64,000 nucleotides of DNA from an uncultured Gemmatimonadota bacterium (GTDB lineage: Bacteria; JAAXHH01), in contig OX638340.1 of assembly GCA_951812955.1 (NCBI GenBank), forward strand, positions 2,272,001 to 2,336,000, read 5' to 3'. The stretch's first letter is position 1; every line of letters begins with the position of its first letter. Below are positions 27,030 through 44,128 of this stretch, piece after piece. The notes beneath the pieces are model-generated. The model searched no databases, was not told the origin of the DNA, and worked only from the letters and a program-made list of their open reading frames with translations. A program made the position numbers and the translations under genes.

Positions 27030-29555
27030 CTACTGTTCCAACAGCATGAAGCTGGTCGTCCTGGTTGCGCGCTGCCCGGAATGCCGGTCCTCAAGCGTCA
27101 CCGCGAGCACATACACACCGGCCGTCAGGTCCGTGGTATCGATCGCCGTGTACTCGGCTTCCTCGGACGTATCGCCCTCGCCCTCATACGACAGAACGAC
27201 GGTCTGCAGGTCGCCGGACCGATCAACCGGACGGCCGCCCGTATCCGGCATGCCCTCGGGTTTGATCTCGTAGTAGGTCTGGTAGGAGGTCCGTCCCGCT
27301 TCGTCTCTGTCCAGGTTATAGATCTCGTAATACACGTACACCAACTGGCCCCGCCCATATGCGCGCAACGGATGCGGCACGATGTTCAGCCCTTTCCTGA
27401 CGAACGATCCGGTCTGGTCGGTCGGCGTTATACCGGTAGACATCTTGAGGCCGCTGATCATCAGATCGCGTCCCTGGTAATCGGGGATGGAAACCGGTTT
27501 CCTGTAGACGCCGATGCGCTGGGAGGTTTCATCCTGCATCTCCACGGCCGCCGTGAACTGTCCCGAAGGCACCAGGACATCGACGGCCAGCGTGTAGGCC
27601 GATACCCGGGCCTGTTCGGAGCTTATCATCCGCTTCGGCCGTTCGATGGGACCGAAGCGGAACTTCTGATTAAGCACCGGCTTGTTTACCGTATCGCGCA
27701 GCGTGGCCTGGTTTCTCAGGAAAGTTTCGTTTCCAAGGCCGTCGGTGACGTCTCCGAACTGCCAGACTGGAAGGCTGTAGACCAGTTCCATTACCGTTTT
27801 CTTGCCGTTCCCCCGGAAAGTGGTGATGTCGAAGGCATAGTCCAGGCCGTCGCCTCCGAAATCGTGCTCGTAGTCTTCCGGGCTACGCTCGATCAGCTGT
27901 TCGGCGATCCGCTGGGGATGATGCATTTCCTCCTTCTGAATTTCGTTGAATGCAGCGTTGTTATCGGGTTCCGTGGAGATCATCAGCGTGCGCAGGGGGT
28001 AGTCGAACCGGCCCCCTCCCATCTGGTCGACGAAGAACAATTCCATGTCGTGCGCCGCGTATACCCAGCTCTCCGACCTGTAAGACGGCCCCATCGCCCG
28101 TCTTTGAACGATCCTGGTTTCGTAGTTGACCTCGGATTGATCATTTAATGAAGACTCTTCTGTGGCTACGTTGTCCGCGGTGAGGTTGTTCACGGTCAGA
28201 AGTGATGCAGCGCCGAAGCCCGCGCGATTCTTCGTGTCCTGTTCCAGCTGGACGGACACCTGTCCCCGGTCCACTTTCAAGCGGTAACCGAACTGCCAGT
28301 TCTTTTCGCGAATGGCGTCCACGGCCGGATTGCCGGTGGGCATGTAGATATCTCTTGGGTCCTCGTATGAGCGGAAGAGAAACCGTCGGCGGTCGTCGGG
28401 CTCGCCATAGCGGACGTATATCTCCCCACGACGGTCGTAGGGGAACCGAGCCGAGGAAAAGTGTATACGTGCATACATCACCCGCTTGTAATGTTCGACC
28501 AGGCGTTCGTTCTCGACCGTGGCTGGATTCGGGTCCCGGGCATTCCAGAAGTCCTGCCACAACCTGTCGCGGGCCGGTCCTTTCGCGGCCTCCCAGGCCG
28601 CCAGCTCGTCGGGAGAAGCCACGTGGGCCAGGTCCCAGTAAATCTCCTGTTCCTCGGACTCAAGCCCCTTGATGTAGGTCTCCAGCGACCGCTGCAGCAG
28701 GTCGTACTGTTTCTTCGAACTCATGGACAGCGCTTCGAACTGCGTCAGCATGGTCCGGATCAGGTCGGGCGTGATACCCTCCATCTCCTCCGCCATCTTC
28801 CGGAGCTGTTCTGCGCCCCGCTCGTAATATTCGAACCGGTGACAGATGCCGGCGAATTTCCGAAGCGTCTCGGGATGGTCCGGATTGACCTGGTACTGTC
28901 TCAGGTAATTAGTCAGCGCCTTGATGTAGTCGTCGTAACGGTCCCTGACGCGCTTCCCGTGGTCCGCCAGCTTCAGTTCCTCGTAACAACGGCCGAGTTG
29001 ATAGAATGCGTCCGGATGCTCGGGATCCAATTCTACAGTCCGCTCAAAGTACGCCCGGCCATCCTGATGACTGCCGATCAGCCAGGCGGTATCGACCTGG
29101 TCCATGTACGTCAGGCCCATGATGTACTGGATCTGGGCGTTTTCGGGATCCAGTCTCATGGCGGTGCGCAACGCCTTCCGGGCATCGAGGCGCCGGTGCG
29201 GCATGCGATTGTATACGAGCCCCAGGCCCATATGGCCAGGTGCCCATTTCCTGTCTCTCCTGACCGCGTGCTTGAAGGCCTTGAGCGCTTCTGCGTCCCT
29301 GTTCAGTGCGAACAGGGCCATGCCGAGCCAGTAGTGGCCGGAAGCACTGTTCTTATTATCCAGTACCGCCTGCTGCAACGGAGGCAGCGCTTCACGGTAC
29401 ATGCCCAGTTCGTAGTAGCGTTTGCCTTCTTCAAGCGATGACTGGCTTGCCAGCCCTGCATCCGGCGGCAAGGCGGACTGGGCCTGCGAGCGACCGAATG
29501 GGACCCACACGGTCAGAATCAGTGCGGCGGTTGAAATGAAACGGAGTGTAGTCAT
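27030..29555 (-). CDS. secreted TPR-repeat protein with GWxTD-like domain (paralogue 1)
   Basis: Start at MTTLRFISTAALILTVWVPFGRSQAQ (signal peptide). TPR repeats, then ...FWNARDPNPATVENERLVEHYKRVMYARIHFS...PYDRRGEIYVRYGEPDDRR, which follows the FW..RDP...NE...Y..R...A...F...GWxTDRG.IY..YG.P layout, but the GW is replaced by PY. Confidence 0.65.
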   Translation of the reverse strand: MTTLRFISTAALILTVWVPFGRSQAQSALPPDAGLASQSSLEEGKRYYELGMYREALPPLQQAVLDNKNSASGHYWLGMALFALNRDAEALKAFKHAVRRDRKWAPGHMGLGLVYNRMPHRRLDARKALRTAMRLDPENAQIQYIMGLTYMDQVDTAWLIGSHQDGRAYFERTVELDPEHPDAFYQLGRCYEELKLADHGKRVRDRYDDYIKALTNYLRQYQVNPDHPETLRKFAGICHRFEYYERGAEQLRKMAEEMEGITPDLIRTMLTQFEALSMSSKKQYDLLQRSLETYIKGLESEEQEIYWDLAHVASPDELAAWEAAKGPARDRLWQDFWNARDPNPATVENERLVEHYKRVMYARIHFSSARFPYDRRGEIYVRYGEPDDRRRFLFRSYEDPRDIYMPTGNPAVDAIREKNWQFGYRLKVDRGQVSVQLEQDTKNRAGFGAASLLTVNNLTADNVATEESSLNDQSEVNYETRIVQRRAMGPSYRSESWVYAAHDMELFFVDQMGGGRFDYPLRTLMISTEPDNNAAFNEIQKEEMHHPQRIAEQLIERSPEDYEHDFGGDGLDYAFDITTFRGNGKKTVMELVYSLPVWQFGDVTDGLGNETFLRNQATLRDTVNKPVLNQKFRFGPIERPKRMISSEQARVSAYTLAVDVLVPSGQFTAAVEMQDETSQRIGVYRKPVSIPDYQGRDLMISGLKMSTGITPTDQTGSFVRKGLNIVPHPLRAYGRGQLVYVYYEIYNLDRDEAGRTSYQTYYEIKPEGMPDTGGRPVDRSGDLQTVVLSYEGEGDTSEEAEYTAIDTTDLTAGVYVLAVTLEDRHSGQRATRTTSFMLLEQ

Positions 29556-29574
29556 GATCTCTATGTGATAAACC

Positions 29575-29631
29575 GGGTACGGTATGGCCTGCAAGGTACG
29601 GTGTAGCCCGCATGGTACGATATGGCCTGCG
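29575..29631. promoter_or_regulatory. 3 x 19-bp direct repeats upstream of TPR-GWxTD paralogue 1
   Basis: gggtacggtatggcctgca / aggtacggtgtagcccgca / tggtacgatatggcctgcg, ending 20 nt upstream of the ATG at 29555. Confidence 0.4.
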
Positions 29632-29704
29632 AACAAACTGAACCGTCGATCAAAGCGGCTGTTTCCCCACACGTTCGGCGACGCGGGGAAGACCGAAGAA
29701 AGTC

Positions 29705-32125
29705 CTACCGTTCCATGACCAGGAAGTTGGCTGATTTGGAAACGGTACTTCCCGCGTGCAGGTCGGTAAGCCTGACAGTAAGTATATACTCACCCGCCGG
29801 CAGACCCGAAGTATCCAATGAAGTATACTCACGGTCCTCGGCTGAAGACCCTTCTCCCGCGAAGGCCATCATTACCGTCTGCATGTCTCTTTGCCTGCGG
29901 GCCGACCAGCCACGCCTTTCAGTAACCTCCAGGGGGCTGATCTCGTAGTGGAATTCGTACGCTGTTCTCTTCTCCCTGTCCAGGCTGAGGTTGTATATCT
30001 CGCAGTAAACGTAAACGGGGTTTCCCCGAAGGTAGAGCCGTCCCGGATTGGGCGTGATGTTCAATCCCTTGCGCACAAAGGGGCCCTGTACGCCTGTCGG
30101 AGCGATGATGGTGGCCAACTTGAGATCGCTGATGAGTAATTCTTCGCCGCTGTAATCAGACAGGGTGACTGGCTTGCGATACACTCCGATCCGGCTCGTC
30201 GTCTCGTCCTGCACCTGGACCGCCAGCGTGAAGCGTCCCGCCGGCGCCACGACGCTAGCGGGCAACGAATACACCGGGACATTCACTTGGCTTTCGGCCA
30301 TCGGCCCCTTCGGCCGGTCGAAGGGGCCGAAACCGAACTCGTGGGTGAACTGCGGGCTCATGGTCGAATCACGCAGGGTGACCAGGTGCGCGAGCCGGGT
30401 CCTGATCCCTCTGCCGTCCGACACCTCACCGAACTGCCATATGGGTATGCTGTAGGACAGATCCAGTTCCGTTGCACCGTTGTCCGCCCTGAAACTTACG
30501 GCGTCGAAGGCGTACTCGAGCGGCTCTCCGCCGTAGTCGTGCAGGTATTCCTCCGGGGCTTTGGCGATCAGTTCTTTGGCGAGCCGCCGGGGACTGAACC
30601 TTTCCTGCCGGGCCATCGCCTGCGGGTTGGTAAGCAGGTTGCCCTGGGGGTAATCGAATCGGCCCCCGCCGAACTGGTCGACGAAGAACAGTTCCAGGCC
30701 ATGCCGGACGTATACCCAGCTCTCGGTAGTGTATCCCGCACCCATTTCCTTTCTCTCCCTCTGCAGGTCAAAGACCGCGGATGATGCAACGATTCCGTCG
30801 GCCAGCGTTCCGCCAAGGGAGTCCAGTTCTGCTACAGTTACCCCCTCGGGCGGGACGATCGTCAAATTGCCCCGGTCGACACGCAATTGATAGCCAAACC
30901 GGTTATTCTGCTCTCGGATCGCGTCCACTGCCGCGTCATCGGAAATCGTAGCACTTTGATAGGCAATCCGATCTGCGTTATAGACGTTGCCGCGGCGGTC
31001 TTCCGGTTCACCGTAACGGACGTACATCTCGCCGCGGCGGTCATAGGGGTGCTGTCCCTGTGAAAAATGGTACCGGGCATACATTACGCGACGGTAATGC
31101 GCTACGAGGCGTTCGTTGGTCACGGTGGCGGGATTCGAATCCCTGGCATTCCAGAAGGCATGCCAGCGCGCATCGCGTTCGAGTCCGCCGGCTTCCTTCC
31201 AGGACGCCAGCTCGTCAGGAGTAGCCACGTGCGCCAGATCCCGGTAAACGCGCTGTTCGTCAGGGCCAAGAAGGGAAATGTACGTTTCAAAAATCCCATG
31301 CAGCACATCCGGCCGTGATTTCGAGTCTTCGGAAAGCGTGCTGAATTGCGTAAGCAGGGTCTGGACGATAGCTGAACCCGAATCTTCAAGTTCTGCTCCG
31401 GCATGTTCCAGTAACTCAACGGCCAGACCATACCTTTCGGAAAGAAGGGCCAGATAGACGAAACGGCCGAGTGCGTCGTAATGGCCGGGATTTACCTTGA
31501 ACTGCGAGATATATGCCGCCATCGCCTTGTCGAATTCGGGCGACTCGGGCCGTTCAAAACAACGGCCGATCTGAAAATACGCATCGGGATGGGAAGGATC
31601 CAATACCGCCGCTTTGAGGAAATAGTTCCGGCCGTCCCGGCCGCCACCCAGAATCCGGTCGGTCTTTCGCGGATTCATATGGGCGATTCCGATATGGTAC
31701 TGGATTTCCGGGTCGTCAGGCGCCAGCCTGGCCGCCATACGCAAGGCGTGACGCGCGTCCAGTCTTCGGTATTTCAACTGAATGTAGGACTTGCCCAGCC
31801 CCACGTAGCCTAACGCCAACTTCTCGTCCAGTTCGACTGAACGCTTGAACGAACTTACCGCCTTCCGGTATTGCTCCAACCCGTATTGAGCCATGCCGAG
31901 CCAGTAGTGGGCGGGCGCCGAACCCCCATCAGCCTCGACGGCCTGATTAAAGTACGGCAATGCTTCCGCGAACTTTTCCTGGTCGAATAGCGTCCGGCCC
32001 GCTTCCAGGGGAGTCCGCTGGCCGGTTTCAGCGACTGTATCCGTTGCGGAGGATTGGGCCTGTAGGCGACCCTGCATGAGTAAAACGAGCAGCACCGCTA
32101 CCAGAAGAACAGGGTATCTGGTCAT
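29705..32125 (-). CDS. secreted TPR-repeat protein with GWxTD-like domain (paralogue 2)
   Basis: 806 aa. Signal peptide MTRYPVLLVAVLLVLLMQGRLQAQS. TPR repeats. ...FWNARDSNPATVTNERLVAHYRRVMYARYHFS...HPYDRRGEMYVRYGEPEDRR. Collinear with paralogue 1. Confidence 0.65.
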   Translation of the reverse strand: MTRYPVLLVAVLLVLLMQGRLQAQSSATDTVAETGQRTPLEAGRTLFDQEKFAEALPYFNQAVEADGGSAPAHYWLGMAQYGLEQYRKAVSSFKRSVELDEKLALGYVGLGKSYIQLKYRRLDARHALRMAARLAPDDPEIQYHIGIAHMNPRKTDRILGGGRDGRNYFLKAAVLDPSHPDAYFQIGRCFERPESPEFDKAMAAYISQFKVNPGHYDALGRFVYLALLSERYGLAVELLEHAGAELEDSGSAIVQTLLTQFSTLSEDSKSRPDVLHGIFETYISLLGPDEQRVYRDLAHVATPDELASWKEAGGLERDARWHAFWNARDSNPATVTNERLVAHYRRVMYARYHFSQGQHPYDRRGEMYVRYGEPEDRRGNVYNADRIAYQSATISDDAAVDAIREQNNRFGYQLRVDRGNLTIVPPEGVTVAELDSLGGTLADGIVASSAVFDLQRERKEMGAGYTTESWVYVRHGLELFFVDQFGGGRFDYPQGNLLTNPQAMARQERFSPRRLAKELIAKAPEEYLHDYGGEPLEYAFDAVSFRADNGATELDLSYSIPIWQFGEVSDGRGIRTRLAHLVTLRDSTMSPQFTHEFGFGPFDRPKGPMAESQVNVPVYSLPASVVAPAGRFTLAVQVQDETTSRIGVYRKPVTLSDYSGEELLISDLKLATIIAPTGVQGPFVRKGLNITPNPGRLYLRGNPVYVYCEIYNLSLDREKRTAYEFHYEISPLEVTERRGWSARRQRDMQTVMMAFAGEGSSAEDREYTSLDTSGLPAGEYILTVRLTDLHAGSTVSKSANFLVMER

Positions 32126-32237
32126 GCCAAACCAACTTGTAGGGGGAAATGACGAAAAGAGATGGAACCTGCTTTAACAGATCCAGGTAATGCCTGCAAC
32201 CTACCCTTATTCGCGGCCACAGTCAAACAAAAGCGGC

Positions 32238-34610
32238 CTAATCTCGCCGCAGGGTGTCCGCCGGGTTGAGCATGGCGCTTCGGAAGGTATGCACGCTCAC
32301 GGTGAGCAGGGCGGTGGCCAGGACAACCAGTCCCGCCGCGACGAAAGGCGCAGCACCGATCTCCGTCCGGTAGGCGAAGTCCGCCAGCCACTCGTTCATG
32401 AGCCACCAGGCGGCCGGCCAGGCGAGGACGTTGCCGATCACCACGAGGACGACGAACTGCCTCGACAGCAGGCCGACTATATCTGAGACCGCGGCGCCCA
32501 TCACCTTGCGGATGCCGACTTCCCGCGTGCGGCGCGCGATGTCCAGCGACACGAGTCCATATACACCCAGGCAGGCGATCAGCAGGGCGAATACCGCGGA
32601 ATAGGTGAAAATGCGCGCAAGGTTGGCTTCACCCTCGTAGAATCGGGCGATGTCGTCATCAAGGAAGGAATACTCGAAAAGCGATTCCGGGGCGATCTCC
32701 ATCCATGCCGCTCTCAACAGATCCAACGTGGCAGGCAGGTCCCGCCCGCTGACGCGTACCAGGAGGAAATTAACACCACCCTGGGTTTCCTCCCCGAAGG
32801 AAGCGGGATTCATCGTCAGGATTACCGGCTCTATTTCTTGATGCATCGACTGGTAGTGGTAGTCCTCCAACACGCCGATGACCGTATATCCGTGGGGCAG
32901 GGTCCGTCCGAGGGGGTCGTCCCATTCCATCACCCTGGCCGCGGCTTGGTTGATTATACATGACCCGGATTCGTCGTTGCCGAACTCCCGGGAAAAATCT
33001 CGTCCTGAGACCAGGTTCAGCTCTAGCGCCTTCACGTAATCGTAATCCACCGTGAACATATATGCTTCAAGCTTGTTCCCGTCCTTATCTGTATAGGCGG
33101 ACTGACCCAGGCCCCGACCGAAGGTGTTGGAAGCTCCCGTCACCAGGATTACGTTCTCATACGAGTTTATCCTGGATTTATAGACGTCCGCGGAGTTGGA
33201 ATTGGGCCCCATGTGGATGACGATGACGTTTTCCTTGTTGTATCCCAGATCTGTGTTCATGACGAAGTCCAACTGTCGGGTCATGACGAGTATGGAAACA
33301 ACGAGTAAGGCAGACAGGCCGAACTGGACGACCATCAGGCCGCGGATAACCAGGTTTGGGCTCCCGATCCGAACCTGATGTCTGAATACGGCAACGGGAT
33401 TGAAACGGGAGAGGATCAGGGCGGGATAGCTCCCGGACGCCAGGGCAACCAGGCCAGTCAACACTAGTAGCGCGGCGATCGTAGAGCCGTTGGAGAGATA
33501 ATCTAGGACGTATGAGCTTCCCGCCAGCGTGTTGAATACAGGAAGAAACAGGTGGGCCAGGATAACGCCTAAGATGAGGGCGAAGCAACTCAACACCGCG
33601 GTCTCACCCAGGAACTGTTTCATGATCTGGGTTTTCTGCGCACCGAACACCTTCCGCAGTCCAACCTCCCTGGCGCGCGAAGACGATCGGCAGAAGGCCA
33701 GGTTCATGAAATTCACGCAGGCGATGAAAAGAACGAAAAGCGCCGTGCAAATCAGTATGTAAGACCTGTTGGGATCGCTCGTGGTACCCTGGCCAAACCT
33801 CACACCCTGAGCAAGATACATGTCCGTTAAAGGCTGCAATTCCAGGTATGGCGATCCCATCTGTGAAAAATGAGTCTCGACAAAACCCGGCAACTGGTTT
33901 TCAAGCATGTCTGCCATTTCCGGATCCGACAGCTCGACGTAGGTTGAGGAGACACTGTAGTTCCAATTGCCGATCGCCTGATTCGTCCAGTTGTCGATAG
34001 CAAACATTTTGTCGAAGGGGATCAGGAAATCGAACCGTATGCTGGAATTAACCGGAGTGTTCTCTGCTACCCCGGCCACCAAAAACGGTTCACCTCGTAT
34101 CGTGAGTTGCCTGCCCAGGGGGCTTCCCGTCCCAAAATACTTCTCGGCGGCGGACTGGCTGATCACCACCGAGTTCAGTTCGTTCAGGACCGTCCCGGGA
34201 TCACCTTCGATCAATGGGAAGGAGAACACGCTGAATATCGATGGATCGCTATACAGAACGTGTTCTTCCCGGAACACATCATTACCAACACGGACTTCCG
34301 CCCCTCCGGTGGTTCGTATTCGCACGGTCTGTTCGACGCCGGGATACTGTTCCTTAAAGGCAGCGGCAAGTGGAAGAGGGGTAATCCCACTGGTATATAA
34401 GTTATCCTCGAAACCTGATCCACCGACGTTGACCCGGTAGATCCGGTCCGCCTTCTCGTGAAAGGCGTCGTAGGTCCACTCCTGGCGCACGAAGAGAAAT
34501 ACGAGGAGGCTGCAGGCGATGCCGGTGGACAGGCCCAGCGTGTTGATGAAGAAGTAGCCCTTGTTGCCGAACAGGTGCCGAAACGCGATGACAAGGTGGT
34601 TTTTCAGCAT
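32238..34610 (-). CDS. orphan FtsX/MacB-type ABC permease (copy A)
   Basis: 790 aa: MLKNHLVIAFRHLFGNKGYFFINTLGLSTGIAC.... Two FtsX modules (...AREVGLRKVFGA..., ...TREVGIRKVMGA...). No ATPase gene nearby. Confidence 0.85.
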   Translation of the reverse strand: MLKNHLVIAFRHLFGNKGYFFINTLGLSTGIACSLLVFLFVRQEWTYDAFHEKADRIYRVNVGGSGFEDNLYTSGITPLPLAAAFKEQYPGVEQTVRIRTTGGAEVRVGNDVFREEHVLYSDPSIFSVFSFPLIEGDPGTVLNELNSVVISQSAAEKYFGTGSPLGRQLTIRGEPFLVAGVAENTPVNSSIRFDFLIPFDKMFAIDNWTNQAIGNWNYSVSSTYVELSDPEMADMLENQLPGFVETHFSQMGSPYLELQPLTDMYLAQGVRFGQGTTSDPNRSYILICTALFVLFIACVNFMNLAFCRSSSRAREVGLRKVFGAQKTQIMKQFLGETAVLSCFALILGVILAHLFLPVFNTLAGSSYVLDYLSNGSTIAALLVLTGLVALASGSYPALILSRFNPVAVFRHQVRIGSPNLVIRGLMVVQFGLSALLVVSILVMTRQLDFVMNTDLGYNKENVIVIHMGPNSNSADVYKSRINSYENVILVTGASNTFGRGLGQSAYTDKDGNKLEAYMFTVDYDYVKALELNLVSGRDFSREFGNDESGSCIINQAAARVMEWDDPLGRTLPHGYTVIGVLEDYHYQSMHQEIEPVILTMNPASFGEETQGGVNFLLVRVSGRDLPATLDLLRAAWMEIAPESLFEYSFLDDDIARFYEGEANLARIFTYSAVFALLIACLGVYGLVSLDIARRTREVGIRKVMGAAVSDIVGLLSRQFVVLVVIGNVLAWPAAWWLMNEWLADFAYRTEIGAAPFVAAGLVVLATALLTVSVHTFRSAMLNPADTLRRD

Positions 34611-34687
34611 GATCGTTTTGCCTCCTGTCGCTTACGAGCTGTAAGCCGGAAAACGTTCCTGAGGAAACACGATCTTGGAATGGCAAA

Positions 34688-34718
34688 GGGGATCTACGGT
34701 TTCGACCCGTCGATCCCC
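34688..34718 (-). other. conserved hairpin in the Big_2-permease spacer (copy A)
   Basis: ggggatc-t-acgg-tttcgac-ccgt-c-gatcccc. On the transcribed strand it is followed by TTTGCCATT. It lies in a ~75-nt block nearly identical to 39608-39680, although the flanking coding sequence has diverged. Confidence 0.4.
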
Positions 34719-34779
34719 TGAAAAGTTGCATGTTGGTAACTATTGCGATGCCGGAACTTACGTAGTGCATTCCCGACTG

Positions 34780-36381
34780 TCAGTCAACGACAAACGTGTT
34801 TTCACTACGGCGAAAACTCCTATCATCGCCAAACGAAACATCATAAACCAGTCTATACTCACCGGCGACTTCCGGATCGTATGGGCAAGCGTCGAATTCC
34901 ACCCGTGTGGCCTCGATGTCTTCCCATGTACTGCCCATATCGTCGCTTCGCTGCCATACGGAGTAATGGACCGTCATGGGGATACCTAACGGCTGAGTTG
35001 GGTAGTTGTTTAGTTCAGCACGAAAGAGTGAACTTGCACAGTATTCTATAGTTATAGGAGTATATCCTGGTCCCGTGAATATCAACTTACCGGGCTCGAC
35101 CTTCCAACCTTCCCACGGGACATAGACTATCTCGTCGACTGGCTCGTCGACGCCTTCGCCGCCATCCCCGCCATCCCCGCCTTCACCACCTTCCCCTTCA
35201 GTCGGAACCATGACCGTGATACTCACCATGGCCGACACGTCGCCGGACGCGGCCGTGACTACGGCCATGCCGTTGCCCACCGCTTCTACCAATCCATCCT
35301 CGTCCACGGTGATCACGTTTTCGTCACCGCTCGTCCACGTGACGGCCGGTTCGGCAATGGCATTGTCGTTCCCGTCGCTGACGGAAACCATGAGTTGCAG
35401 GGTCTGTTCGATCTCGGTCAGCGTGGTGGCATCGGGTGCGACCTCGATGCTGATGCCGGCCGGAACCTGGGCGACGGTGATCGACGCAGTCCCCATAGCG
35501 TCTCCGGCCTGTGCCGTGATCTCCGCCATGCCGTTGTCCACCGCGGTCACAAGCCCGTTCTCGTCCACGGTGGCCACGGCGTCATCGGCGCTTGACCAGG
35601 TCACCATCACGTCCTCCATCGCGTTTTCGTGCTGGTCCAGCACGACGGCCGCGAGTTCCACGGTGTCGCCGATCGCTTCCAGCGTGTGCGCAGCGGGCTC
35701 GATCGTCAGGCTCGTCGGCACGGATACGGATACCGTGATGGACGCACTGGCGGACAGGCTGCCGGATGTGGCCGTGATCTCAGCCATCCCGTTACTCACC
35801 GCCGTTACAAGGCCCGCCCCGCTCACGGTCGCCACGGCGTCGTCGCCGCTCGACCAGGTGATGGACTGGCCGGACATGATGTTGTTCCGCTGATCCCGCA
35901 CCGTAGCCGACAACTGTACCGTTTCCCCGATCGCCTTCAGCGTATGGGACGTCGGTGCGACCGTGATCCGGGTCGGCACCGGCTCGGCCACCGTGATGTT
36001 CGCAGTGCCCGTCGCGTTGCCGGACTGCGCCCTTATTTGCGCGGCGCCGTTGGCCACGGCCGTCACCAGGCCATTTCCGCTGACAGTCGCCACCGCGGTA
36101 TTGCTGCTCGACCAAGTCACCGCCTGGCCGGTCATCGGATTGTTGTTCTGGTCCCTCACCATGGCCATCAGTTGCACGGTCGCGCCAATCGTCGCCAGCG
36201 TGTGCGAAGACGGCGTGACAGAAATGCTCGTCGCAACGGGCGCAGGCGGTGGAGCAGGCGGGGTCGGTGTGGACGGCTCGGGACTCGTCGGGCTGCTGTC
36301 CCCGCCACCGCATCCCGCCAGAAAAACCAGGTACAAGGATGCCGTGATCTTGGCGAACACGCGACTGTATGGACCAAACAC
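34780..36381 (-). CDS. lipoprotein with four Big_2 (bacterial Ig-like) domains and a Cys-containing C-terminal domain (copy A)
   Basis: 533 aa. GTG start after AAAGGAG. Lipobox LVFLAGCGG and Pro-rich linker. Four repeats of ...TLxAIGxTVQL...VxWSSxxxxVATVxxxGLVTAVxNG.AxIxA... Gly/Glu/Asp linker GEGGEGGDGGDGGEG. The ~120-aa C-terminal domain is unassigned. Confidence 0.85.
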   Translation of the reverse strand: MFGPYSRVFAKITASLYLVFLAGCGGGDSSPTSPEPSTPTPPAPPPAPVATSISVTPSSHTLATIGATVQLMAMVRDQNNNPMTGQAVTWSSSNTAVATVSGNGLVTAVANGAAQIRAQSGNATGTANITVAEPVPTRITVAPTSHTLKAIGETVQLSATVRDQRNNIMSGQSITWSSGDDAVATVSGAGLVTAVSNGMAEITATSGSLSASASITVSVSVPTSLTIEPAAHTLEAIGDTVELAAVVLDQHENAMEDVMVTWSSADDAVATVDENGLVTAVDNGMAEITAQAGDAMGTASITVAQVPAGISIEVAPDATTLTEIEQTLQLMVSVSDGNDNAIAEPAVTWTSGDENVITVDEDGLVEAVGNGMAVVTAASGDVSAMVSITVMVPTEGEGGEGGDGGDGGEGVDEPVDEIVYVPWEGWKVEPGKLIFTGPGYTPITIEYCASSLFRAELNNYPTQPLGIPMTVHYSVWQRSDDMGSTWEDIEATRVEFDACPYDPEVAGEYRLVYDVSFGDDRSFRRSENTFVVD

Positions 36382-36463
36382 TGCTGTCTCCTTTCGGCTA
36401 ATTACTGAAAAGCGGTTCGTTGTAATCTACCGTTCTTGATCTCGATGAACAGATTATCTGACT

Positions 36464-37057
36464 TCATGCACGCAGGCCCTTCATACTCTCCCGGGCCGCT
36501 TCGAGGGTCCGGTCGATGTCTTCTTCGGTATGGGCCAGGGACACAAACCCCGTTTCAAGGCGCGAAGGCGCCAGGTAGACGCCCCGGTCCAGCATATTCC
36601 AGAAGTATCGCCCGTACGTATCCGCGTCTGACGTGGAAGCTGCATCGAAATTGTTGACGGTCTGATCTGTGAAGAAGGTACACATCATGGAGCCCACACG
36701 GGTCAGGCAGGCCGGGACGCCGGCCGCTTCCGCCGCGGCGCGAAGGCCGTCGCCGAGGCGGGCGGCCAGGGATTCCAGCCGGTCGTAGACCCCGGGTTCC
36801 TGAAGCTGCCGCACCGTTTCATATCCAGCGGTCATGGCAAGCGGATTGCCGGACAGCGTGCCGGCCTGGTAAACCTCACCGGCGGGCGCCACGGTTTCCA
36901 TGAACTTTTCCTGGTCGAATAGCGCACGTCCCGCTTCCAGGGGAGTCCGCTGGCCGGTTTCAGCGACTGTATCATCTGCGGTGGATTGGGCCTGGAGGCG
37001 ACCCTGCATGAGAAAAACGAGCAGGACCGCTACCAGAAGTACAGGGTATCTGGTCAT
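36464..37057 (-). CDS. chimeric ORF at the duplication junction: signal peptide/first 52 codons of the TPR-GWxTD gene fused in frame to the last 145 codons of hemL (probably non-functional)
   Basis: MTRYPVLLVAVLLVFLMQGRLQAQSTADDTVAETGQRTPLEAGRALFDQEKF | METVAPAGEVYQAGTLSGNPLAMTAGY...KGLRA. The second part is base-identical to 41855-42294 (hemL 3' end). The first part is ~95% identical to 31971-32125. Confidence 0.8.
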   Translation of the reverse strand: MTRYPVLLVAVLLVFLMQGRLQAQSTADDTVAETGQRTPLEAGRALFDQEKFMETVAPAGEVYQAGTLSGNPLAMTAGYETVRQLQEPGVYDRLESLAARLGDGLRAAAEAAGVPACLTRVGSMMCTFFTDQTVNNFDAASTSDADTYGRYFWNMLDRGVYLAPSRLETGFVSLAHTEEDIDRTLEAARESMKGLRA

Positions 37058-37169
37058 GGCAAACCAACTCGTAGGGGGAAATGACGGAAAGAAATGGAAC
37101 CTGCTTTAACATATGCAGGTAATGCCTGCAACCTACCCTTATTCGCGGCCTCAGTCAAACAAATGCGGC

Positions 37170-39541
37170 CTACTCGCTCCGCAGGGTGTCCGCCGGGTTG
37201 AGCATAGCGCTTCGGAAAGTATGCACGCTCACGGTGAGCAGGGCGGTGGCCAGGACAACTAGTCCCGCCGCGACGAAAGGCGCAGCACCGATCTCCGTCC
37301 GGTAGGCGAAGTCCGCCAGCCACTCGTTCATGAGCCACCAGGCGGCCGGCCAGGCCAGGACGTTGCCGATCACCACGAGGACGACGAACTGCCTCGACAG
37401 CAGGCCGACTATATCTGAGACCGCGGCGCCCATCACCTTGCGGATGCCGACTTCCCGCGTGCGGCGCGCGATGTCCAGCGACACGAGTCCATATACGCCG
37501 AGGCAGGCGATCAGCAGGGCGAATACCGCGGAATAGGTGAAAATCAGCGCCAGGTTGTTCTCATCCTGGTAGAACCGTTCTATATCGTCTTCCATGAAGA
37601 AATACTCGTAGGGCGTCTCAGGCGCTGTCCCCTTCCACGCGTCCTCGAGCAGGGAAAGCGTGGTTGGCAGATCCCTGCCGCTGACCCGGACCAGGAGGAA
37701 GCCGTAACTGACCGAAGTGTTACCCATGGATGTGGGATTGAGGGAGAGTATAATCGGATCGATCTCCTGGTGCAGCGACTGGAAATGGAAGTCCTTGACT
37801 ACGCCGATTACCGTATACCCATGGGGCAGTTTGCGCCCGATCGGATCTTCCCATTCCAGCTTCTTTGCCGCGGCCTCGTTGATGATGCACGATTGGAACT
37901 CGTCGTTTACGAATTCGCTGGAAAAATCACGGCCACGGACGAGGTTCAGTTCAAGCGTCTCCAGGTAATCGCGGTCCACGGTCGCCATGAACGCTTCCAG
38001 CTTGTTTCCGTCCGGTCGGTGTAGGCAACCTGGGGCAAGAAATGCCCCTGACCAAAGGTGCTGGAAGTGCCGGAAACCAGGAGTATGTCTTCGTACGGTA
38101 TCACTTTGCTGCGAAAGATCTCCAGGTCGTTTGAATTGAAGGGGGCCTGGATGACTACCACGTTGTGCGGGTTGAACCCCAAATCCCCCGTCCGCACAAA
38201 GTCCAGCTGCCGGGTCATGATGAGAATTGAAATGACGAGCAACGCGGACAACCCGAACTGCACGACCATCAAGCCGCGCACGAAGAGATTCGGCCCTCCG
38301 ATCTGAACCTGTTGCCGGAAGATGGTGACGGGGTTGTAGTGTGAGAGCACCAGGGAAGGATAACTGCCGGAAACCAGGGCGACCAGCACGGTCAAACCCG
38401 TCAGCGCGGCCAGCGTGGATCCGTTCGTCAGGTAGTCCAGCACGAGGGACTTTCCCGCCAGCATATTGAAAACCGGAAGGAACAGGTGGGCCAGGGCCAC
38501 GCTCAGCACCAGGGCGAAGCAGCACAGCGCCGCGGTTTCGCCCAAGTGCTGTCCCATGATCTGGGTTCGGCGCGCGCCGTAAACTTTCCTGACACCGACC
38601 TCTTTCACACGCGAAGACGAACGGCAGACGGCCAGGTTCATGAAGTTGACGCAGGCGATGAATAGTACGAGCAGCGCCGTGCAAATCAGGATGTAGGACC
38701 GGTTGGGATCGCTGGTGGGACCCAGCCCGAATTTGACTTCCTGATCCAGGTAGATATCGGTGATGGGTTGCAGGATCAGATAGGGCGACGAGTAGGCCGG
38801 GAAATGGGTTTCGACGAATTCCGGCAGTTGACTGAGGAGCGATTCTACTCGATCCGGATCCCCGAGTTCGATGAAAGTGGCCGTGGACGAATAGTTCCAC
38901 TTTCCGATGGCATTCGATATCCAGGGGTTTATTTCCGGCGCCTTGTCAAAGGGTATGAGCAGGTCGAACCGAATACTGGAGTTATCCGGTCCGTTCTCCG
39001 CGACGCCGGTTACGGTCAGCGGAATGCCCTGTACCAGGAGCGTCCTGCCCGTCGGAGACTCCTGGCCGAAGTACTTCGCCGCGGCGGATTTGCTGACGAC
39101 CACTGAATTCGCCTCGCCGAGGGCCGTACCGGGATCGCCTTCGATCATCGTGAAGGAGAACATCTCGAAGAAGGACGGATCGCAGAAAAGGGCGTTCTCC
39201 TTGCGGAACGTATCTTCTCCGATGCGAATATCGGATGGATATTCCGTTATGCGCACGGTCCGGACCACGTCGGGATATTGCTGCTCCAGGGTAGCCGCGA
39301 GCGGGAGGGGAGTTCTCGCGCTTATGAACGGGTTGTCGTCGAAATCCACTCCACCGGCTGCGACCTGGTAGATCCGGTCCGATTTCTCGTGGAAGGCGTC
39401 GTAGGTCCACTCGTGGCGGACGAAGAGAAAGATCAGGAGGCAGCACGCGATACCGGTCGACAGGCCAAAAGTATTGATGAAGAAATAACCCTTGTTGGCG
39501 AACAGGTACCGCAACGCGATGACGAGGTTGTTTTTCACCAT
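37170..39541 (-). pseudogene. orphan FtsX/MacB-type ABC permease (copy B) with a 1-nt frameshift near 38010-38020
   Basis: The N-terminal 508 codons are read in ORF 37946-39541 (...VAYTDR then nonsense). The C-terminal ~280 codons (PDGNKLEAFMATVDRDY...TLRSE*) are in the frame of ORF 37170-38900. Copy A reads AYTDKDGNKLEAY across this point. Observed tacaccgaccggacggaaac appears to lack one base. Confidence 0.7.
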
Positions 39542-39617
39542 GATCGTATTGCCTCCTGTCGCTTACGCATGCAAGCAGGAAAACGCACCTGGGGAAAGAC
39601 GATCCTGCAATGGCAAA

Positions 39618-39648
39618 GGGGATCTACGGTTTCGACCCGTCGATCCCC
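39618..39648 (-). other. conserved hairpin in the Big_2-permease spacer (copy B)
   Basis: Sequence identical to 34688-34718. Confidence 0.4.
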
Positions 39649-39708
39649 TTAAAGGTTGCATGTTGGTAACTATTGCGATTGGGAACTTACGTTGTGCATT
39701 CCTGACTG

Positions 39709-41772
39709 TCAGGGGATGACAAACGTATTCTCACTACGGCGAAAACTCCTATCATCGTCAAGCGAAATATCACCAACCAGTCTATACTCACCGGCGACTT
39801 CCGGATTGTATGGGCAAGCGTCGAATTCCACCCGTGTGTCCTCGATGTCTTCCCATGTACTGCCCATATCGTCGCTTCGCTGCCATACGGAGTAATGGAC
39901 CGTAATGGTGACACCTAACGGAGTTGGGCGGTTGTTTAGTTCTCCACCTAAGAGTGAACTTGCGCAGTTTACTATAGGTATTGTAGCAAGTCCTGGGACC
40001 GTAAAAACCAACCGACCGGGCTCGACCCGCACACCTTCCCACGGGACGTAGGTGACTTCATCCACCGTAATGGTCACCGTGATGCTCACCATGGCCGACA
40101 CGTCGCCGGACGCGGCCGTAACTTCGGTCATGCCGTTGCCCACAGCTTCTACCAACCCATCCTCGTCCACGGTGACCACGTTCTCGTCACCGCTCGTCCA
40201 CGTGACGGCCGGTTCGGCAATGGCATTGTCGTTCCCGTCGCTGACGGAAACCATGAGTTGCAGGGTCTGTTCGATCTCGGTCAGCGTGGTGGCATCGGGT
40301 GCGACCTCGATGCTGATGCCGGCCGGAACCTGGGCGACGGTGATCGACGCAGTCCCCATAGCGCCTCCGGCCTGGGCCGTGATCTCCGCCATGCCGTTGT
40401 CCACCGCGGTGACCACGCCGTTCTCGTCCACGGTGGCCACGGCGTCGTCGCCGCTCGACCAGGTCACCATCACGTCCTCCATCGCGTTTTCGTGCTGGTC
40501 CAGTACGACGGCCGCGAGTTCCACGGTGTCGCCGATCGCTCCCAGCGTGTGCGCGGCTGGCTCGATCGTGATGCTCGTTGCCACGGGCTCGGATATCACC
40601 ATGACCGTGATACTCACCATGGCCGATACGTCGCCGGATGCGGCCGTAACTGCGGCCATGCCGTTCCCCACCGCTTCTACCAAACCATCCTCGTCCACGG
40701 TGGCCACGTTTTCGTCACCGCTCGTCCACGTGACGGCCGGTTCGGCAATGGCATTGTCGTTCCCGTCGCTGACGGAAACCATGAGTTGCAGGGTCTGTTC
40801 GATCTCGGTCAGCGTGGTGGCATCGGGTGCGACCTCGATGCTGATGCCGGCCGGAACCTGGGCGACGGTGATCGACGCAGTCCCCATAGCGTCTCCGGCC
40901 TGTGCCGTGATCTCCGCCATGCCGTTGTCCACCGCGGTCACAAGCCCGTTCTCGTCCACGGTGGCCACGGCGTCATCGGCGCTTGACCAGGTCACCATCA
41001 CGTCCTCCATCGCGTTTTCGTGCTGGTCCAGCACGACGGCCGCGAGTTCCACGGTGTCGCCGATCGCTTCCAGCGTGTGCGCAGCGGGCTCGATCGTCAG
41101 GCTCGTCGGCACGGATACGGATACCGTGATGGACGCACTGGCGGACAGGCTGCCGGATGTGGCCGTGATCTCAGCCATCCCGTTACTCACCGCCGTTACA
41201 AGGCCCGCCCCGCTCACGGTCGCCACGGCGTCGTCGCCGCTCGACCAGGTGATGGACTGGCCGGACATGATGTTGTTCCGCTGATCCCGCACCGTAGCCG
41301 ACAACTGTACCGTTTCCCCGATCGCCTTCAGCGTATGGGACGTCGGTGCGACCGTGATCCGGGTCGGCACCGGCTCGGCCACCGTGATGTTCGCAGTGCC
41401 CGTCGCGTTGCCGGACTGCGCCCTTATTTGCGCGGCGCCGTTGGCCACGGCCGTCACCAGGCCATTTCCGCTGACAGTCGCCACCGCGGTATTGCTGCTC
41501 GACCAAGTCACCGCCTGGCCGGTCATCGGATTGTTGTTCTGGTCCCTCACCATGGCCATCAGTTGCACGGTCGCGCCAATCGTCGCCAGCGTGTGCGAAG
41601 ACGGCGTGACAGAAATGCTCGTCGCAACGGGCGCAGGCGGTGGAGCAGGCGGGGTCGGTGTGGACGGCTCGGGACTCGTCGGGCTGCTGTCCCCGCCACC
41701 GCATCCCGCCAGAAAAACCAGGTACAAGGATGCCGTGATCTTGGCGAACACGCGACTGTATGGACCAAACAC
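39709..41772 (-). CDS. lipoprotein with six Big_2 domains and a Cys-containing C-terminal domain (copy B)
   Basis: 687 aa. The first ~355 aa are identical to copy A. Contains an extra 176-aa (528-bp) two-domain unit (d3-d4 repeated as d5-d6, ~95% aa identity). The C-terminal domain is related to, but diverged from, copy A. Confidence 0.85.
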   Translation of the reverse strand: MFGPYSRVFAKITASLYLVFLAGCGGGDSSPTSPEPSTPTPPAPPPAPVATSISVTPSSHTLATIGATVQLMAMVRDQNNNPMTGQAVTWSSSNTAVATVSGNGLVTAVANGAAQIRAQSGNATGTANITVAEPVPTRITVAPTSHTLKAIGETVQLSATVRDQRNNIMSGQSITWSSGDDAVATVSGAGLVTAVSNGMAEITATSGSLSASASITVSVSVPTSLTIEPAAHTLEAIGDTVELAAVVLDQHENAMEDVMVTWSSADDAVATVDENGLVTAVDNGMAEITAQAGDAMGTASITVAQVPAGISIEVAPDATTLTEIEQTLQLMVSVSDGNDNAIAEPAVTWTSGDENVATVDEDGLVEAVGNGMAAVTAASGDVSAMVSITVMVISEPVATSITIEPAAHTLGAIGDTVELAAVVLDQHENAMEDVMVTWSSGDDAVATVDENGVVTAVDNGMAEITAQAGGAMGTASITVAQVPAGISIEVAPDATTLTEIEQTLQLMVSVSDGNDNAIAEPAVTWTSGDENVVTVDEDGLVEAVGNGMTEVTAASGDVSAMVSITVTITVDEVTYVPWEGVRVEPGRLVFTVPGLATIPIVNCASSLLGGELNNRPTPLGVTITVHYSVWQRSDDMGSTWEDIEDTRVEFDACPYNPEVAGEYRLVGDISLDDDRSFRRSENTFVIP

Positions 41773-41854
41773 TGCTGTCTCCTTTCGGCTAATTACTGAA
41801 AAGCGGTTCGTTGTAATCTACCGTTCTTGATCTCGATGAACAGATTATCTGACT

Positions 41855-43144
41855 TCATGCACGCAGGCCCTTCATACTCTCCCGGGCCGCTTCGAGGGTC
41901 CGGTCGATGTCTTCTTCGGTATGGGCCAGGGACACAAACCCCGTTTCAAGGCGCGAAGGCGCCAGGTAGACGCCCCGGTCCAGCATATTCCAGAAGTATC
42001 GCCCGTACGTATCCGCGTCTGACGTGGAAGCTGCATCGAAATTGTTGACGGTCTGATCTGTGAAGAAGGTACACATCATGGAGCCCACACGGGTCAGGCA
42101 GGCCGGGACGCCGGCCGCTTCCGCCGCGGCGCGAAGGCCGTCGCCGAGGCGGGCGGCCAGGGATTCCAGCCGGTCGTAGACCCCGGGTTCCTGAAGCTGC
42201 CGCACCGTTTCATATCCAGCGGTCATGGCAAGCGGATTGCCGGACAGCGTGCCGGCCTGGTAAACCTCACCGGCGGGCGCCACGGTTTCCATGATTTCCC
42301 TGCGACCGCCATAGGCCCCCACGGGAAGTCCTCCCCCGATGATCTTGCCCAGGCAGGTCATGTCGGCCGAGATGCCGAATCGTTCCTGCGCTCCGCCGAA
42401 TGCGATCCTGAATCCCGTGATGACCTCGTCAAAAATCAGAATGATCCCCCGCTTCTCCGTCTCTTCCCGAATGGTTTCGAGAAAGCCTTCGGCCGGAGGG
42501 ATCATGCCCATGTTGCCGGCGACCGGCTCTACGATCACGCAGGCGACGTCGCCGCCCCGCTCCGCCAGGGTGCGCCGGACGGCCTCGACGTCGTTGTAGG
42601 GTAGATTGATGGTCATCTTCGCCAGGTCCGCAGGCACGCCGGGACTGTCGGGGATGCCGAATGTCGCGGCGCCGGAACCGGCCTGGATGAGAAAGCTGTC
42701 TCCGTGGCCGTGGTATCCCGCCTCGAATTTGACCGCCAGGTCGCGCCCCGTGTATCCGCGGGCGACGCGCAGGGCGCTCATGGTCGCTTCCGTGCCGGAG
42801 TTGACCATGCGTATCAGGTCGATGGACGGGAAGGCGGTCCTGACCAGTTCCGCCAGCCTGATCTCGGCTTCGGTGGGCGTGCCGAAACTCGTACCCCGTT
42901 CACAGGCCTTCTTCAGGGCCTCGACCACGGCGGGATGGCCGTGGCCCAGGATCAGCGGTCCCCAGGATCCCAGGTAATCGATGTACTCGTTGCCGTCCAC
43001 GTCGTAGACCCTGGAACCCGCGCCCCGGTCCATGAAGACGGGGCTTCCTCCAACCCGCCCGAAATTCCGCACGGGGCTGTTCACCCCGCCGGGCATGGAT
43101 CGCTGGGCCTGGTCGAAGAGGGTACTGGATCGGGAACGGTTCAT
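41855..43144 (-). CDS. hemL: glutamate-1-semialdehyde 2,1-aminomutase
   Basis: 429 aa: ...MPGGVNSPVRNF..., ...SGTEATMSALRVARGYTGR..., ...LGKIIGGGLPVGAYGGRREIME.... Confidence 0.95.
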   Translation of the reverse strand: MNRSRSSTLFDQAQRSMPGGVNSPVRNFGRVGGSPVFMDRGAGSRVYDVDGNEYIDYLGSWGPLILGHGHPAVVEALKKACERGTSFGTPTEAEIRLAELVRTAFPSIDLIRMVNSGTEATMSALRVARGYTGRDLAVKFEAGYHGHGDSFLIQAGSGAATFGIPDSPGVPADLAKMTINLPYNDVEAVRRTLAERGGDVACVIVEPVAGNMGMIPPAEGFLETIREETEKRGIILIFDEVITGFRIAFGGAQERFGISADMTCLGKIIGGGLPVGAYGGRREIMETVAPAGEVYQAGTLSGNPLAMTAGYETVRQLQEPGVYDRLESLAARLGDGLRAAAEAAGVPACLTRVGSMMCTFFTDQTVNNFDAASTSDADTYGRYFWNMLDRGVYLAPSRLETGFVSLAHTEEDIDRTLEAARESMKGLRA

Positions 43145-43159
43145 ACGATTTATTCCATT

Positions 43160-44128
43160 TCAGAGTCTTCGGGCGACATCCATCGCGAAATAAGTGAGGA
43201 TCATGTCGGCGCCGGCGCGTTTTATGGCGGTCAGCGACTCCAGGACGATCCGTTCTTCGTCGATCCAGCCTTTCTGTCCTGCCGCCTTGATCATGGCGTA
43301 TTCCCCGCTCACGTTGTAGGCGGCCACCGGCACTTCAAAGGCCGATTTGACTCGTTGTATCACGTCGAGATAGGCCAGGGCCGGCTTGACCATGACGATA
43401 TCGGCGCCTTCCTCAAGGTCGAGTTCTACTTCCCGCAGCGCTTCGGTGGCGTTCGCCGGGTCCATCTGGTAGGAACGGCGGTCGCCGAATTGCGGGACCG
43501 AGTCCGCGGCGTCGCGAAAGGGCCCGTAATACGCCGAAGCGTACTTGGCGGAATAGGCCAGGATCGGGACATGCCCGAGGTGTTCGCCGTCCAGACCCTC
43601 CCGGATCGCACGCACGCGGCCGTCCATCATGTCCGACGGCGCAACCAGGTCCGCGCCGGCGCGGGCCTGCGAGAGCGCGGTCCTGACGAGCAGGCGAAGC
43701 GTGGCATCGTTCTCCACGTCGCCGTCCCGGATCACGCCGCAGTGCCCGTGATCGGTGTACTCGCAGAGGCATACGTCGCCGATGACGGTCAGTTCCGGTA
43801 CCGCTTGCTTGATCGCGCCAATGGCCCGTTGCACGATGCCGTCGTCCGCATAGGCTCCGGAACCGTAGGCGTCCTTGCTCTCCGGGATGCCGAAGAGCAT
43901 GACGGCCGGGATACCCAGGTCCACGACTTCACGGCAGGCCTCCACGGCCTGGTCAACCGACTGCCGGTCCACGCCGGGCATCGAATCTACCGGGGAACGT
44001 ACGCCTTCGCCCGGGCAGATGAACATGGGATAGACCAGGTCGTCCACGGAGAGCCGGGTCTCGCCGATCATGGCGCGCAGGCTTCCGGTCCGCCGCAGGC
44101 GCCGTAGCCGATGTACGGGAAATGCCAT
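43160..44128 (-). CDS. hemB: porphobilinogen synthase (delta-aminolevulinate dehydratase)
   Basis: 322 aa: [36 protein letters not shown]..., ...[11 protein letters not shown]..., ...YQMDPAN..., ...MVKPAL.YLD.... Confidence 0.95.

Follow-up and report, generated by a model that had tools for sequence, protein, structure and literature searches.

A natural tandem duplication joined at a two-nucleotide microhomology, with patched units and probable spread between lineages, at a Big_2-permease locus of Gemmatimonadota

Long repeats in genomes derived from metagenomes are open to suspicion, and one such repeat raises the question of whether it is a genuine tandem duplication or a product of assembly, and, if genuine, of how its two units came to be identical at one end and highly divergent in the centre. 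The repeat lies in a 64,000-nucleotide (nt) stretch of an uncultured Gemmatimonadota bacterium (GenBank assembly GCA_951812955.1, contig OX638340.1, positions 2,272,001 to 2,336,000), and in it a block that runs from inside hemL, through genes for a Big_2 protein and a permease, to inside a TPR-GWxTD gene occurs twice. Below, this entire 64,000-nt stretch is called the window, all coordinates are window-based, and the genes studied are on the minus strand. Loci from other assemblies are labelled L001 and L081-L091, and proteins P0001, P0008, and P0124-P0127. The hemL 3' and TPR 5' sequence found at the join is referred to as the J-linked copy, while that found in the intact genes is referred to as native.

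Self-BLAST of the 28-46 kb region together with global alignment confirmed the head-to-tail duplication of a ~5-kb block that had been proposed in the original prediction, with unit A being ~4.93 kb and unit B 5.39 kb in direct tandem orientation (Table 1). Self-comparison matched 35207-36903 to 40598-42294 at 99.5% identity (8 mismatches in 1697 nt), 31964-33789 to 36896-38723 at 80%, and 34401-35125 to 39332-40051 at 86%. At the join, the TPR gene breaks off after nt 154 and hemL takes over at nt 851. Read in gene sense, the hemL breakpoint is GGGAAA-TC-ATGGAA (extended, ...GGGAAA-TC-ATGGAAACC...), the TPR-gene breakpoint is AAAGT-TC-GCGGAA (extended, ...GAAAAGT-TC-GCGGAAGC...), and the junction is AAAGT-TC-ATGGAA (extended, ...GAAAAGT-TC-ATGGAAACC...), all three strings reading as they had been quoted. 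The claim that only GA is shared was also borne out, as the perfect overlap of the parental sites is limited to TC, although the recurrence of GGAA 2 nt further on creates an imperfect 6/8 match. When GA is given to the hemL side, the predicted limits of unit B and the predicted end of unit A both hold, while unit A begins at 31972 and not at 31971. The proposed gene identities (hemL, Big_2, ADOP/MacB-FtsX permease, and TPR plus GWxTD) were all recovered with Pfam and NCBIfam. The same two databases placed no insertion sequence (IS), integrase, or transposase domain among the unit genes or at the unit ends, and the ends carry no terminal inverted or att-like repeats, with an inverted-repeat scan giving weak, chance-level internal matches only. 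A promoter and terminator scan likewise found no enrichment relative to shuffled sequence.

Whether the array is real could be judged from the open reading frame (ORF) that the join creates, a chimera of the TPR-GWxTD and HemL proteins. A homology search with this ORF recovered the identical protein on the 3.81-Mb source contig at 100% coverage, as well as a full-length 197-amino-acid (aa) protein of 90% identity on a 39-kb hifiasm-style contig (L081; ENA ERZ18545484), and the 90% cluster of the chimera contained two more proteins on three contigs (L082, L083, and L084) from three other ENA assemblies. The gene order of L081 is hemB, hemL, Big_2, permease, chimera, Big_2, permease, TPR, TPR. 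In all four contigs from these four other assemblies, the join occurs at the same base and is internal to the contig, with the surrounding sequence differing from that of the window by 5-10%. By their contig naming these were taken as long-read assemblies, and two of them have a coverage of 2-7x, so that they represent essentially single molecules across the join. Because the same join is present in independent populations that differ from the window by 5-10%, an assembly chimera is excluded. Sequence comparison thus confirms the tandem duplication as real rather than as an assembly artefact, with the source contig verified through other assemblies, and this recurrence of an identical junction supports the earlier preference for illegitimate recombination over an assembly join. 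The comparison with related genomes that had been recommended also revealed the single-copy arrangement. A single Big_2-permease pair is found in six related loci (L085, L086, L087, and L089-L091, with L088 being partial), the full single-copy order hemL-Big_2-permease-TPR is present in L085-L087 (genomes of 2.9-3.85 Mb), and the circular L087 in particular (75x coverage) aligns colinearly to the window at 92-95% identity yet has one unit only. The closest named relatives are Gemmatimonadetes metagenome-assembled genomes (MAGs), and the names of related MAGs hint at a sponge association, which is only suggested in this way. A hemL scan of genome contigs yielded one close relative, L001, whose contig ends inside Big_2, leaving the copy number unreadable. 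Exact-protein look-ups of HemL, the window chimeric ORF, and P0001 returned no record, a scan of Joint Genome Institute (JGI) metagenomes for the join sequence gave 0 matches, and a literature search for the accessions found nothing.

The alignment profile between the units is mosaic, as had been predicted. The hemL 3' end, the spacer, and the first 1.07 kb of Big_2 form a base-identical tract of exactly 1590 nt (36903-35314 = 42294-40705), in line with the identity claimed for this end up to ~1.05 kb of Big_2. Identity then falls to 86% in the Big_2 3' end, 89% in the Big_2-permease spacer, 83.5% in the first 200 nt of the permease, and 55-75% in the permease body, before returning to 95.8% in the last 400 nt of the permease and 92.9% in both the permease-TPR spacer and the TPR 5' part. 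At the protein level, permease-A and permease-B share 66% aa identity at residues 1-509 and 80% at residues 510-790. Accordingly, the estimate of 65-70% for the centre fits the permease body but not the Big_2 3' end and spacer (86-89% nt), while the high identity at the TPR end stands with a value of 93-96% in place of ~97%. The greater length of unit B is due to a 528-nt internal tandem duplication in Big_2-B, which comprises two Ig repeats (~40070-41125, 89-97% identity).

To describe the permease genes, we refer to the type of window permease-A and L087 as alpha, the divergent type of relatives as delta, and permease-B as gamma. Permease-A is 92-95% identical to the permeases of the single-copy loci L087 and L089 and to those upstream of the junction in L081-L084. 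In contrast, the body of permease-B has a synonymous divergence (dS) of 0.6-1.4 from every other allele; the closest known protein to gamma is 79% identical (P0124-P0127), and its closest nucleotide match among the compared loci is L085 (79%). The permease upstream of the join is alpha in all junction-bearing relatives (93-96% to permease-A), from which it follows that the upstream permease of the window would originally have been alpha and would have been replaced later. Thus, the divergent centre of unit B is evidently a replaced foreign allele rather than the outcome of divergence in situ. The differences of permease-B from the unanimous alpha consensus are densely packed within a gamma patch, which has its left edge inside a conserved anchor formed by the start of the permease gene. 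In this anchor, the dS between alpha and delta is 0.24-0.43, versus 1.2-1.65 in the gene body, and identity is 81-96% nt across the allele classes (L081-L091), compared to 65-69% in the gene bodies; alpha and delta alone are 90-95% identical over the interval. The permease 5' segment therefore seems to act as a shared recombination and crossover anchor. Permease-B has also lost 1 nt (GGG to GG) near 38012, which breaks its ORF in two, a feature that the original prediction had missed, and it is a probable pseudogene.

Two further patterns point to exchange between the units after the duplication. We defined an alpha consensus from the permeases of L087 and L089 together with those upstream of the join in L081 and L082, and at 541 sites where this consensus is unanimous unit B differs from it. 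Permease-A has the alpha state at almost all of these, the exception being one unbroken run of 37 gamma-state sites (32559-32431), and within this stretch permease-A is only 72-85% identical to all of the alpha references, which are 96-99% identical to each other. Such a run shows the imprint of B-to-A gene conversion, with the probable pseudogene donating to the intact copy. For the 1590-nt identical tract, J-linked copies in other genomes are 5-8% off the window sequence and the opposite unit end of the window is 4-7% diverged, so ~80 differences (at least 5%) were expected and 0 are seen, which indicates that the tract was recently homogenised. The original prediction had offered either gene conversion at the ends of the units or replacement of the centre by a divergent allele; the 37 consecutive donor-state sites and the 1590 nt free of differences sustain the former, and the divergence of the gamma body from every allele indicates that the latter applies as well. 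The window has 11 of the 13 states that separate J-linked from native copies, which is expected under either direction of homogenisation. The 3' part of hemL (41855-42294) is more diverged than its 5' part (42295-43144) in every comparison (against L087, nonsynonymous divergence [dN] of 0.056 vs 0.016 and dS of 0.36 vs 0.21), including comparisons among genomes that lack the duplication, and this excess may be intrinsic to the C-terminal domain instead of reflecting overwriting of the native gene by the copy in the chimera.

The junction-bearing relatives differ greatly from the window outside of the array, which allowed the history of the join to be separated from that of its surroundings. 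Between the window and L081/L083, the flanks have a dS of 0.48-0.69 (hemB and the 5' part of hemL) and the TPR gene is 77-81% identical, while the dS is 0.13-0.17 for the permease upstream of the join, 0.16-0.26 for the chimera, and 0.10-0.13 for the Big_2 downstream of the join. This block is as close to the window as, or closer than, the nearest single-copy locus L087 (dS 0.13-0.31). Similarly, J-linked hemL 3' copies in the delta genomes match the native hemL of alpha at 88.6-93.9% identity versus 79.5-81.6% for their own hemL, and the TPR side of the join is likewise alpha-type in these genomes. At the level of sequence, these comparisons show that the join was built from alpha-type genes, and its single origin is likewise shown. 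The alpha block in L081-L084 is exactly one unit long (permease, junction, and Big_2). Within approximately -6 to +174 of the permease gene, delta gives way to alpha in the upstream copy and alpha to delta in the downstream one, and matching edges of this kind are the expected signature of a single reciprocal exchange. The resulting array in delta genomes is Big_2-delta, permease-alpha, join, Big_2-alpha, permease-delta. In L088, which comes from the same sample as L083, the gene directly after Big_2-delta is a permease-delta sharing 99.06% identity with the permease downstream of the join in L084, and since L088 is thus an empty or reverted site, the block would be gained or lost on short time scales. 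L081 and L083 themselves have a dS of 0.33-0.63 in the upstream flank and 0.1-0.23 in the array. Overall, the join point has probably spread between lineages by homologous recombination. With respect to age, the duplication had been called old; the join is about as old as the split from L087, but it postdates the separation from the divergent relatives that carry the junction. A separate attempt to group the J copies as one clade, as in a single transfer, yielded no clean clade on hemL 3', and a single transfer is not claimed.

Taken together, we favor the following scenario of duplication, patching in the window lineage, and spread to the delta lineage, to which we assign a probability of roughly 0.75. 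The ancestral locus would have had the order hemB-hemL-Big_2-permease-TPR(GWxTD), which related genomes retain. An ancestor on the alpha branch would then have undergone one illegitimate recombination, independent of RecA, at the 2-nt microhomology, yielding the 5-kb head-to-tail duplication and, as a by-product, an in-frame ORF combining the TPR N-terminus with the HemL C-terminal domain. In the window lineage, ~2 kb of the upstream permease would then have been swapped for gamma by homologous recombination with a crossover in the first 175 nt, a pattern that is directly visible in the alignment, and the patched copy would have subsequently gained its frameshift. Big_2-B presumably gained its two Ig repeats, the 129-140-nt tract was copied from unit B into permease-A, and the 1590 nt at the hemL/Big_2 end were homogenised to the present identity. 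Separately, a unit-length piece spanning the join would have recombined into the single-copy locus of a delta lineage with both crossovers in the 175-nt anchor, the incoming DNA having been either an excised unit circle (Campbell-style integration) or a join-point fragment bridging sister chromosomes. The locus would thereby be a hypervariable cassette site at which old allele classes are shuffled between lineages, with the duplication seating two classes in one genome.

The best surviving rival holds that the window was not the originator of the join and instead received a join-bearing unit with a gamma/alpha hybrid permease by anchor-mediated insertion. The location of the left edge of the gamma patch in the same permease 5' anchor agrees with this, as do the J-proximal spacer and TPR 5' part of unit B, which are 95-100% identical to the J copies of relatives and 93% to the native sequence of the window; the 11/13 shared J-linked states are expected under in-situ and received-unit models alike and do not discriminate. 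However, an extra hybrid donor would be required, none of which was observed, and both the 1590-nt homogenisation and the B-to-A tract would still be needed, and we consider this model unlikely. A duplication that predates all of the lineages is less likely again. Under such a model, the units would have diverged in place, the single-copy loci would be losses, and the similarities would reflect concerted evolution within genomes, for which one could cite the great age of the allele classes at both genes of the pair, permease and Big_2 (dS above 1), the ease with which tandem arrays are lost through unit pop-out, and the demonstrable activity of gene conversion at the locus. Conversion within genomes cannot yield similarity between genomes, however, and the join halves in the divergent relatives are 89-95% identical to native genes of the window clade and only ~80% to their own hemL/TPR, with the dS between the upstream permease of these relatives and permease-A being 4-5 times below that of the flanks. 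At least four or five independent clean losses would also be needed, each restoring a matched Big_2-permease pair, and the J copies should fall outside all native hemL 3' sequences, which they do not. Mobility of the unit, as an element or cassette under the control of a transposase or site-specific recombinase, would account for the same block occurring in different genomic backgrounds, but it is highly improbable given that the unit contains only hemL 3', Big_2, permease, and TPR 5' sequence with no integrase or transposase domain, has no terminal inverted or att-like repeats, and always sits at the homologous position with its edges inside homologous coding sequence. Head-to-tail concatenation of two strain haplotypes of a single-copy locus by the assembler, which the allele-like centre and identical end of the units might recall, can be dismissed with equal confidence, as the junction joins non-homologous positions sharing 2 nt and recurs unchanged inside four contigs of four other assemblies that are 5-10% off the window sequence.

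Several points do weigh against our favored scenario of duplication, patching, and spread. The window contig itself is supported indirectly, via other assemblies rather than reads, and the frameshift of permease-B is located in a short G run, where it could stem from an error in the consensus. An unpatched alpha-alpha array was not found, and the identity of the original upstream permease is inferred from the block in delta genomes. The 1590-nt identity could have originated from a recent cycle of unequal crossover (to three units and back to two) rather than from classical conversion, and the scenario does not account for the 80-95% identity seen in the spacer and at the 3' end of Big_2-B. 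L088 may have lost the block by pop-out and need not be a site that was never occupied. Lastly, the lineage labels derive from a few flanking genes in the presence of rampant recombination, which makes the number and direction of transfers uncertain.

Table 1. Coordinates of the duplication, its genes, and the recombination tracts within the window
Feature	Coordinates	Strand	Composition or basis
Duplication unit B	36904..42294, 5391 nt	-	hemL 3' 440 nt, spacer, Big_2-B, spacer, permease-B, spacer, TPR 5' 154 nt
Duplication unit A	31972..36903, 4932 nt	-	hemL 3' 440 nt (in chimeric ORF), spacer, Big_2-A, spacer, permease-A, spacer, first 154 nt of native TPR-GWxTD
Join point	36902..36903	.	2-nt microhomology GA (TC in gene sense); parental copies 42293-42294 (hemL) and 31970-31971 (TPR gene)
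hemB	43160-44128		Pfam + NCBIfam
Native hemL (glutamate-1-semialdehyde 2,1-aminomutase), 429 aa	41855..43144	-	Pfam + NCBIfam; breakpoint after codon 283/284 (42294/42295)
Native TPR-GWxTD gene, 806 aa	29705..32125	-	Pfam + NCBIfam; breakpoint after nt 154 (31971/31972)
Chimeric ORF, 197 aa, in frame	36464..37057	-	N-terminal 51 residues of TPR-GWxTD + C-terminal 146 of HemL (residues 284-429)
Big_2-B, 687 aa, 6 Ig-like repeats	39709..41772	-	Pfam/NCBIfam
Big_2-A, 533 aa, 4 Ig-like repeats	34780..36381	-	Pfam/NCBIfam
Permease-B (ADOP/MacB-FtsX type), split	37170..39541	-	ORFs 37946-39541 and 37170-38900
Permease-A, intact, 790 aa, alpha	32238..34610	-	Pfam/NCBIfam
Gamma allele patch in permease-B, ~2.0 kb	37356..39392	-	Dense differences from unanimous alpha consensus
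Conserved permease 5' anchor, first 58 codons (first transmembrane segment, TM1, region)	34437..34610; also 39368-39541	-	Low dS
Gene-conversion tract in permease-A (B to A), 129-140 nt	32431..32559	-	Alpha-state bounds at 32565 and 32424
Homogenised tract, 1590 nt	35314..36903	-	Base-identical to 40705-42294

The fusion of the chimeric ORF is in frame because the shared TC occupies codon positions 2-3 in both of the parent genes. Its TPR-derived N-terminus is signal-peptide-like by inspection, and the protein would lack the pyridoxal phosphate (PLP) lysine, as Lys267 is upstream of the breakpoint. The ORF is intact in 5/5 junction-bearing loci (195-197 aa), and all pairwise comparisons of the chimera yield a dN/dS of 0.17-0.29, with P from 2e-4 to 6e-9 against neutrality. 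When random substitutions were applied, only ~20% of trials with 55 changes, and ~6% of those with 110, left the ORF without a stop codon. One might tentatively suppose that the chimeric ORF is a newborn functional gene and that the join also serves as a natural vehicle for allele capture at a hypervariable locus, though we regard this combined idea as doubtful. If it is true, divergent lineages would gain a second Big_2/permease class via the join, at a locus that is possibly host- or phage-facing. Alternatively, the low dN/dS may reflect repeated homogenisation of J copies that took place in alpha donors, prior to transfer, with functional hemL as the template. The J copy of L083 is similar at its 3' end to other native alleles, in line with homogenisation before transfer, and the 100% identity of the two hemL 3' copies in the window illustrates the same process.

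Each of the mechanisms invoked here is already known and no new one is required. RecA-independent tandem duplications at short junction sequences were reportedly described in Salmonella and E. coli by Anderson and Roth in 1977 and by Reams and Roth. The present array resembles them in being a head-to-tail repeat of a few kb with a join of unrelated positions sharing ~2 nt and no IS or rrn repeat at its ends, and in its instability, being prone to unequal crossover and pop-out. Those are transient laboratory variants, however, whereas the duplication described here is fixed and common to natural populations of an uncultivated lineage, and its units have been made heterogeneous by later recombination. 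Concerted evolution by gene conversion between bacterial paralogues is known from tufA/tufB in Salmonella and from rrn operons, and it parallels the short, sharp tracts carrying variants of the other copy and the long tract of perfect identity within diverging copies. The difference here is that the units are adjacent in tandem and that a probable pseudogene donated to an intact copy. Capsule and O-antigen loci are hypervariable, have conserved flanks, and are swapped by homologous recombination. The likeness lies in allele classes with dS above 1 bordered by conserved flanks whose divergence is that of the genome at large, in alleles that are discordant with flank similarity, and in recombination anchors at the cassette borders. 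By comparison, the present locus encodes an Ig-repeat (sometimes LRR) protein together with an orphan MacB/FtsX-type (ADOP) permease, and the co-residence of two classes by tandem duplication is not the usual pattern. With regard to spread, transformation can give rise to tandem duplications through interchromatid integration (Johnston et al. 2013, PMC3784515), and transformation also sufficed to pass the patAB duplication, on a 9-kb scale, to a recipient strain (Baylay et al. 2015, PMC4432121). In these join-point and merodiploid systems, exogenous DNA that carries the join or is partly repeated leads to a tandem duplication in the recipient, and the reciprocal edges within one homologous segment seen here would fit an interchromatid or Campbell-type product. 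Unlike those systems, our case is built on comparative sequence only, the flanking genes of the apparent donor and recipient are ~15-20% apart, and the product is a hybrid array of two allele classes.

That a suspicious 5-kb repeat in a metagenome-derived genome proves genuine bears on the trust that can be placed in long-read MAG assemblies. Within 10 kb, the locus combines four processes (microhomology duplication, allele replacement, short-tract gene conversion, and the apparent spread of a join across ~15-20% divergence) that are usually seen separately and in the laboratory. Its added value is that of a clean natural example, together with evidence for spread of a join point between divergent lineages by homologous recombination.

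The Big_2-permease pair downstream of the hem operon is best regarded as a hypervariable cassette in this Gemmatimonadota clade, because its allele classes are old, occur in discordant combinations, and are bordered by conserved anchors. The permease body dS between window alpha and the L085 allele is 1.13, compared to 0.30-0.40 for the flanks, and Big_2 and permease types are mixed, as in L089, which has an LRR-type Big_2 and an alpha permease. Big_2-A is the positional orthologue of the Big_2 after the junction in L081-L084 (92-95% nt). Among related loci, the Big_2 alleles range from 529 to 705 aa, the number of Ig repeats varies, and some alleles (L085, L086, and L089) contain LRR domains. 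A surface or host-facing role for the cassette is a matter of speculation, and its recognition could guide work on orphan permeases and Ig/LRR proteins.

A number of smaller observations concern the same genes. Every recombination edge that was mapped falls in the first-58-codon segment of the permease. Frameshifts also disrupt the alpha permease that precedes the join in L083 (5649-8014) and L084 (1176-3540), which come from different samples; both have the same 273-aa C-terminal ORF, and their frameshifts are independent of that in window permease-B, which suggests that the upstream permease copy decays repeatedly. Elsewhere in the window, there are minus-strand ORFs at 5224-7650, 9596-12049, and 21256-23859 (808-867 aa), the last of which falls in a stretch colinear with L087 DNA carrying a MacB_PCD/FtsX gene (L087 18140-20602) and may be another ADOP-type permease. 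For hemL, the 123-aa HemL C-terminal fragment P0008 was considered as a second, independent join and rejected, as it belongs to a frameshift-split hemL in a single-copy locus. In L091, hemL is split by a frameshift (9130-10372; 295 + 123 aa), and the TPR-GWxTD gene is split in L082 (8574-11103), L089 (4988-7407; L089/L090), and L091 (15063-17466), all of these being either pseudogenes or low-coverage consensus errors. L001 (Gemmatimonadetes MAG APA_bin_41) has a hemL that is 95% identical to that of the window at the nt level and, between hemL and Big_2, ~1 kb (1867-2922) that the window lacks and in which the only ORFs are short (62-94 aa). Two adjacent paralogues of the TPR-GWxTD gene are also present in the window (27030-29672, 880 aa, and 29705-32125, 806 aa), which share patches of ~74% nt identity, such as 28383-28652 versus 30990-31258. 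This pair is a second, older tandem duplication adjoining the one studied here, and its second copy is present in L081 and L089-L091 and missing from L085-L088.

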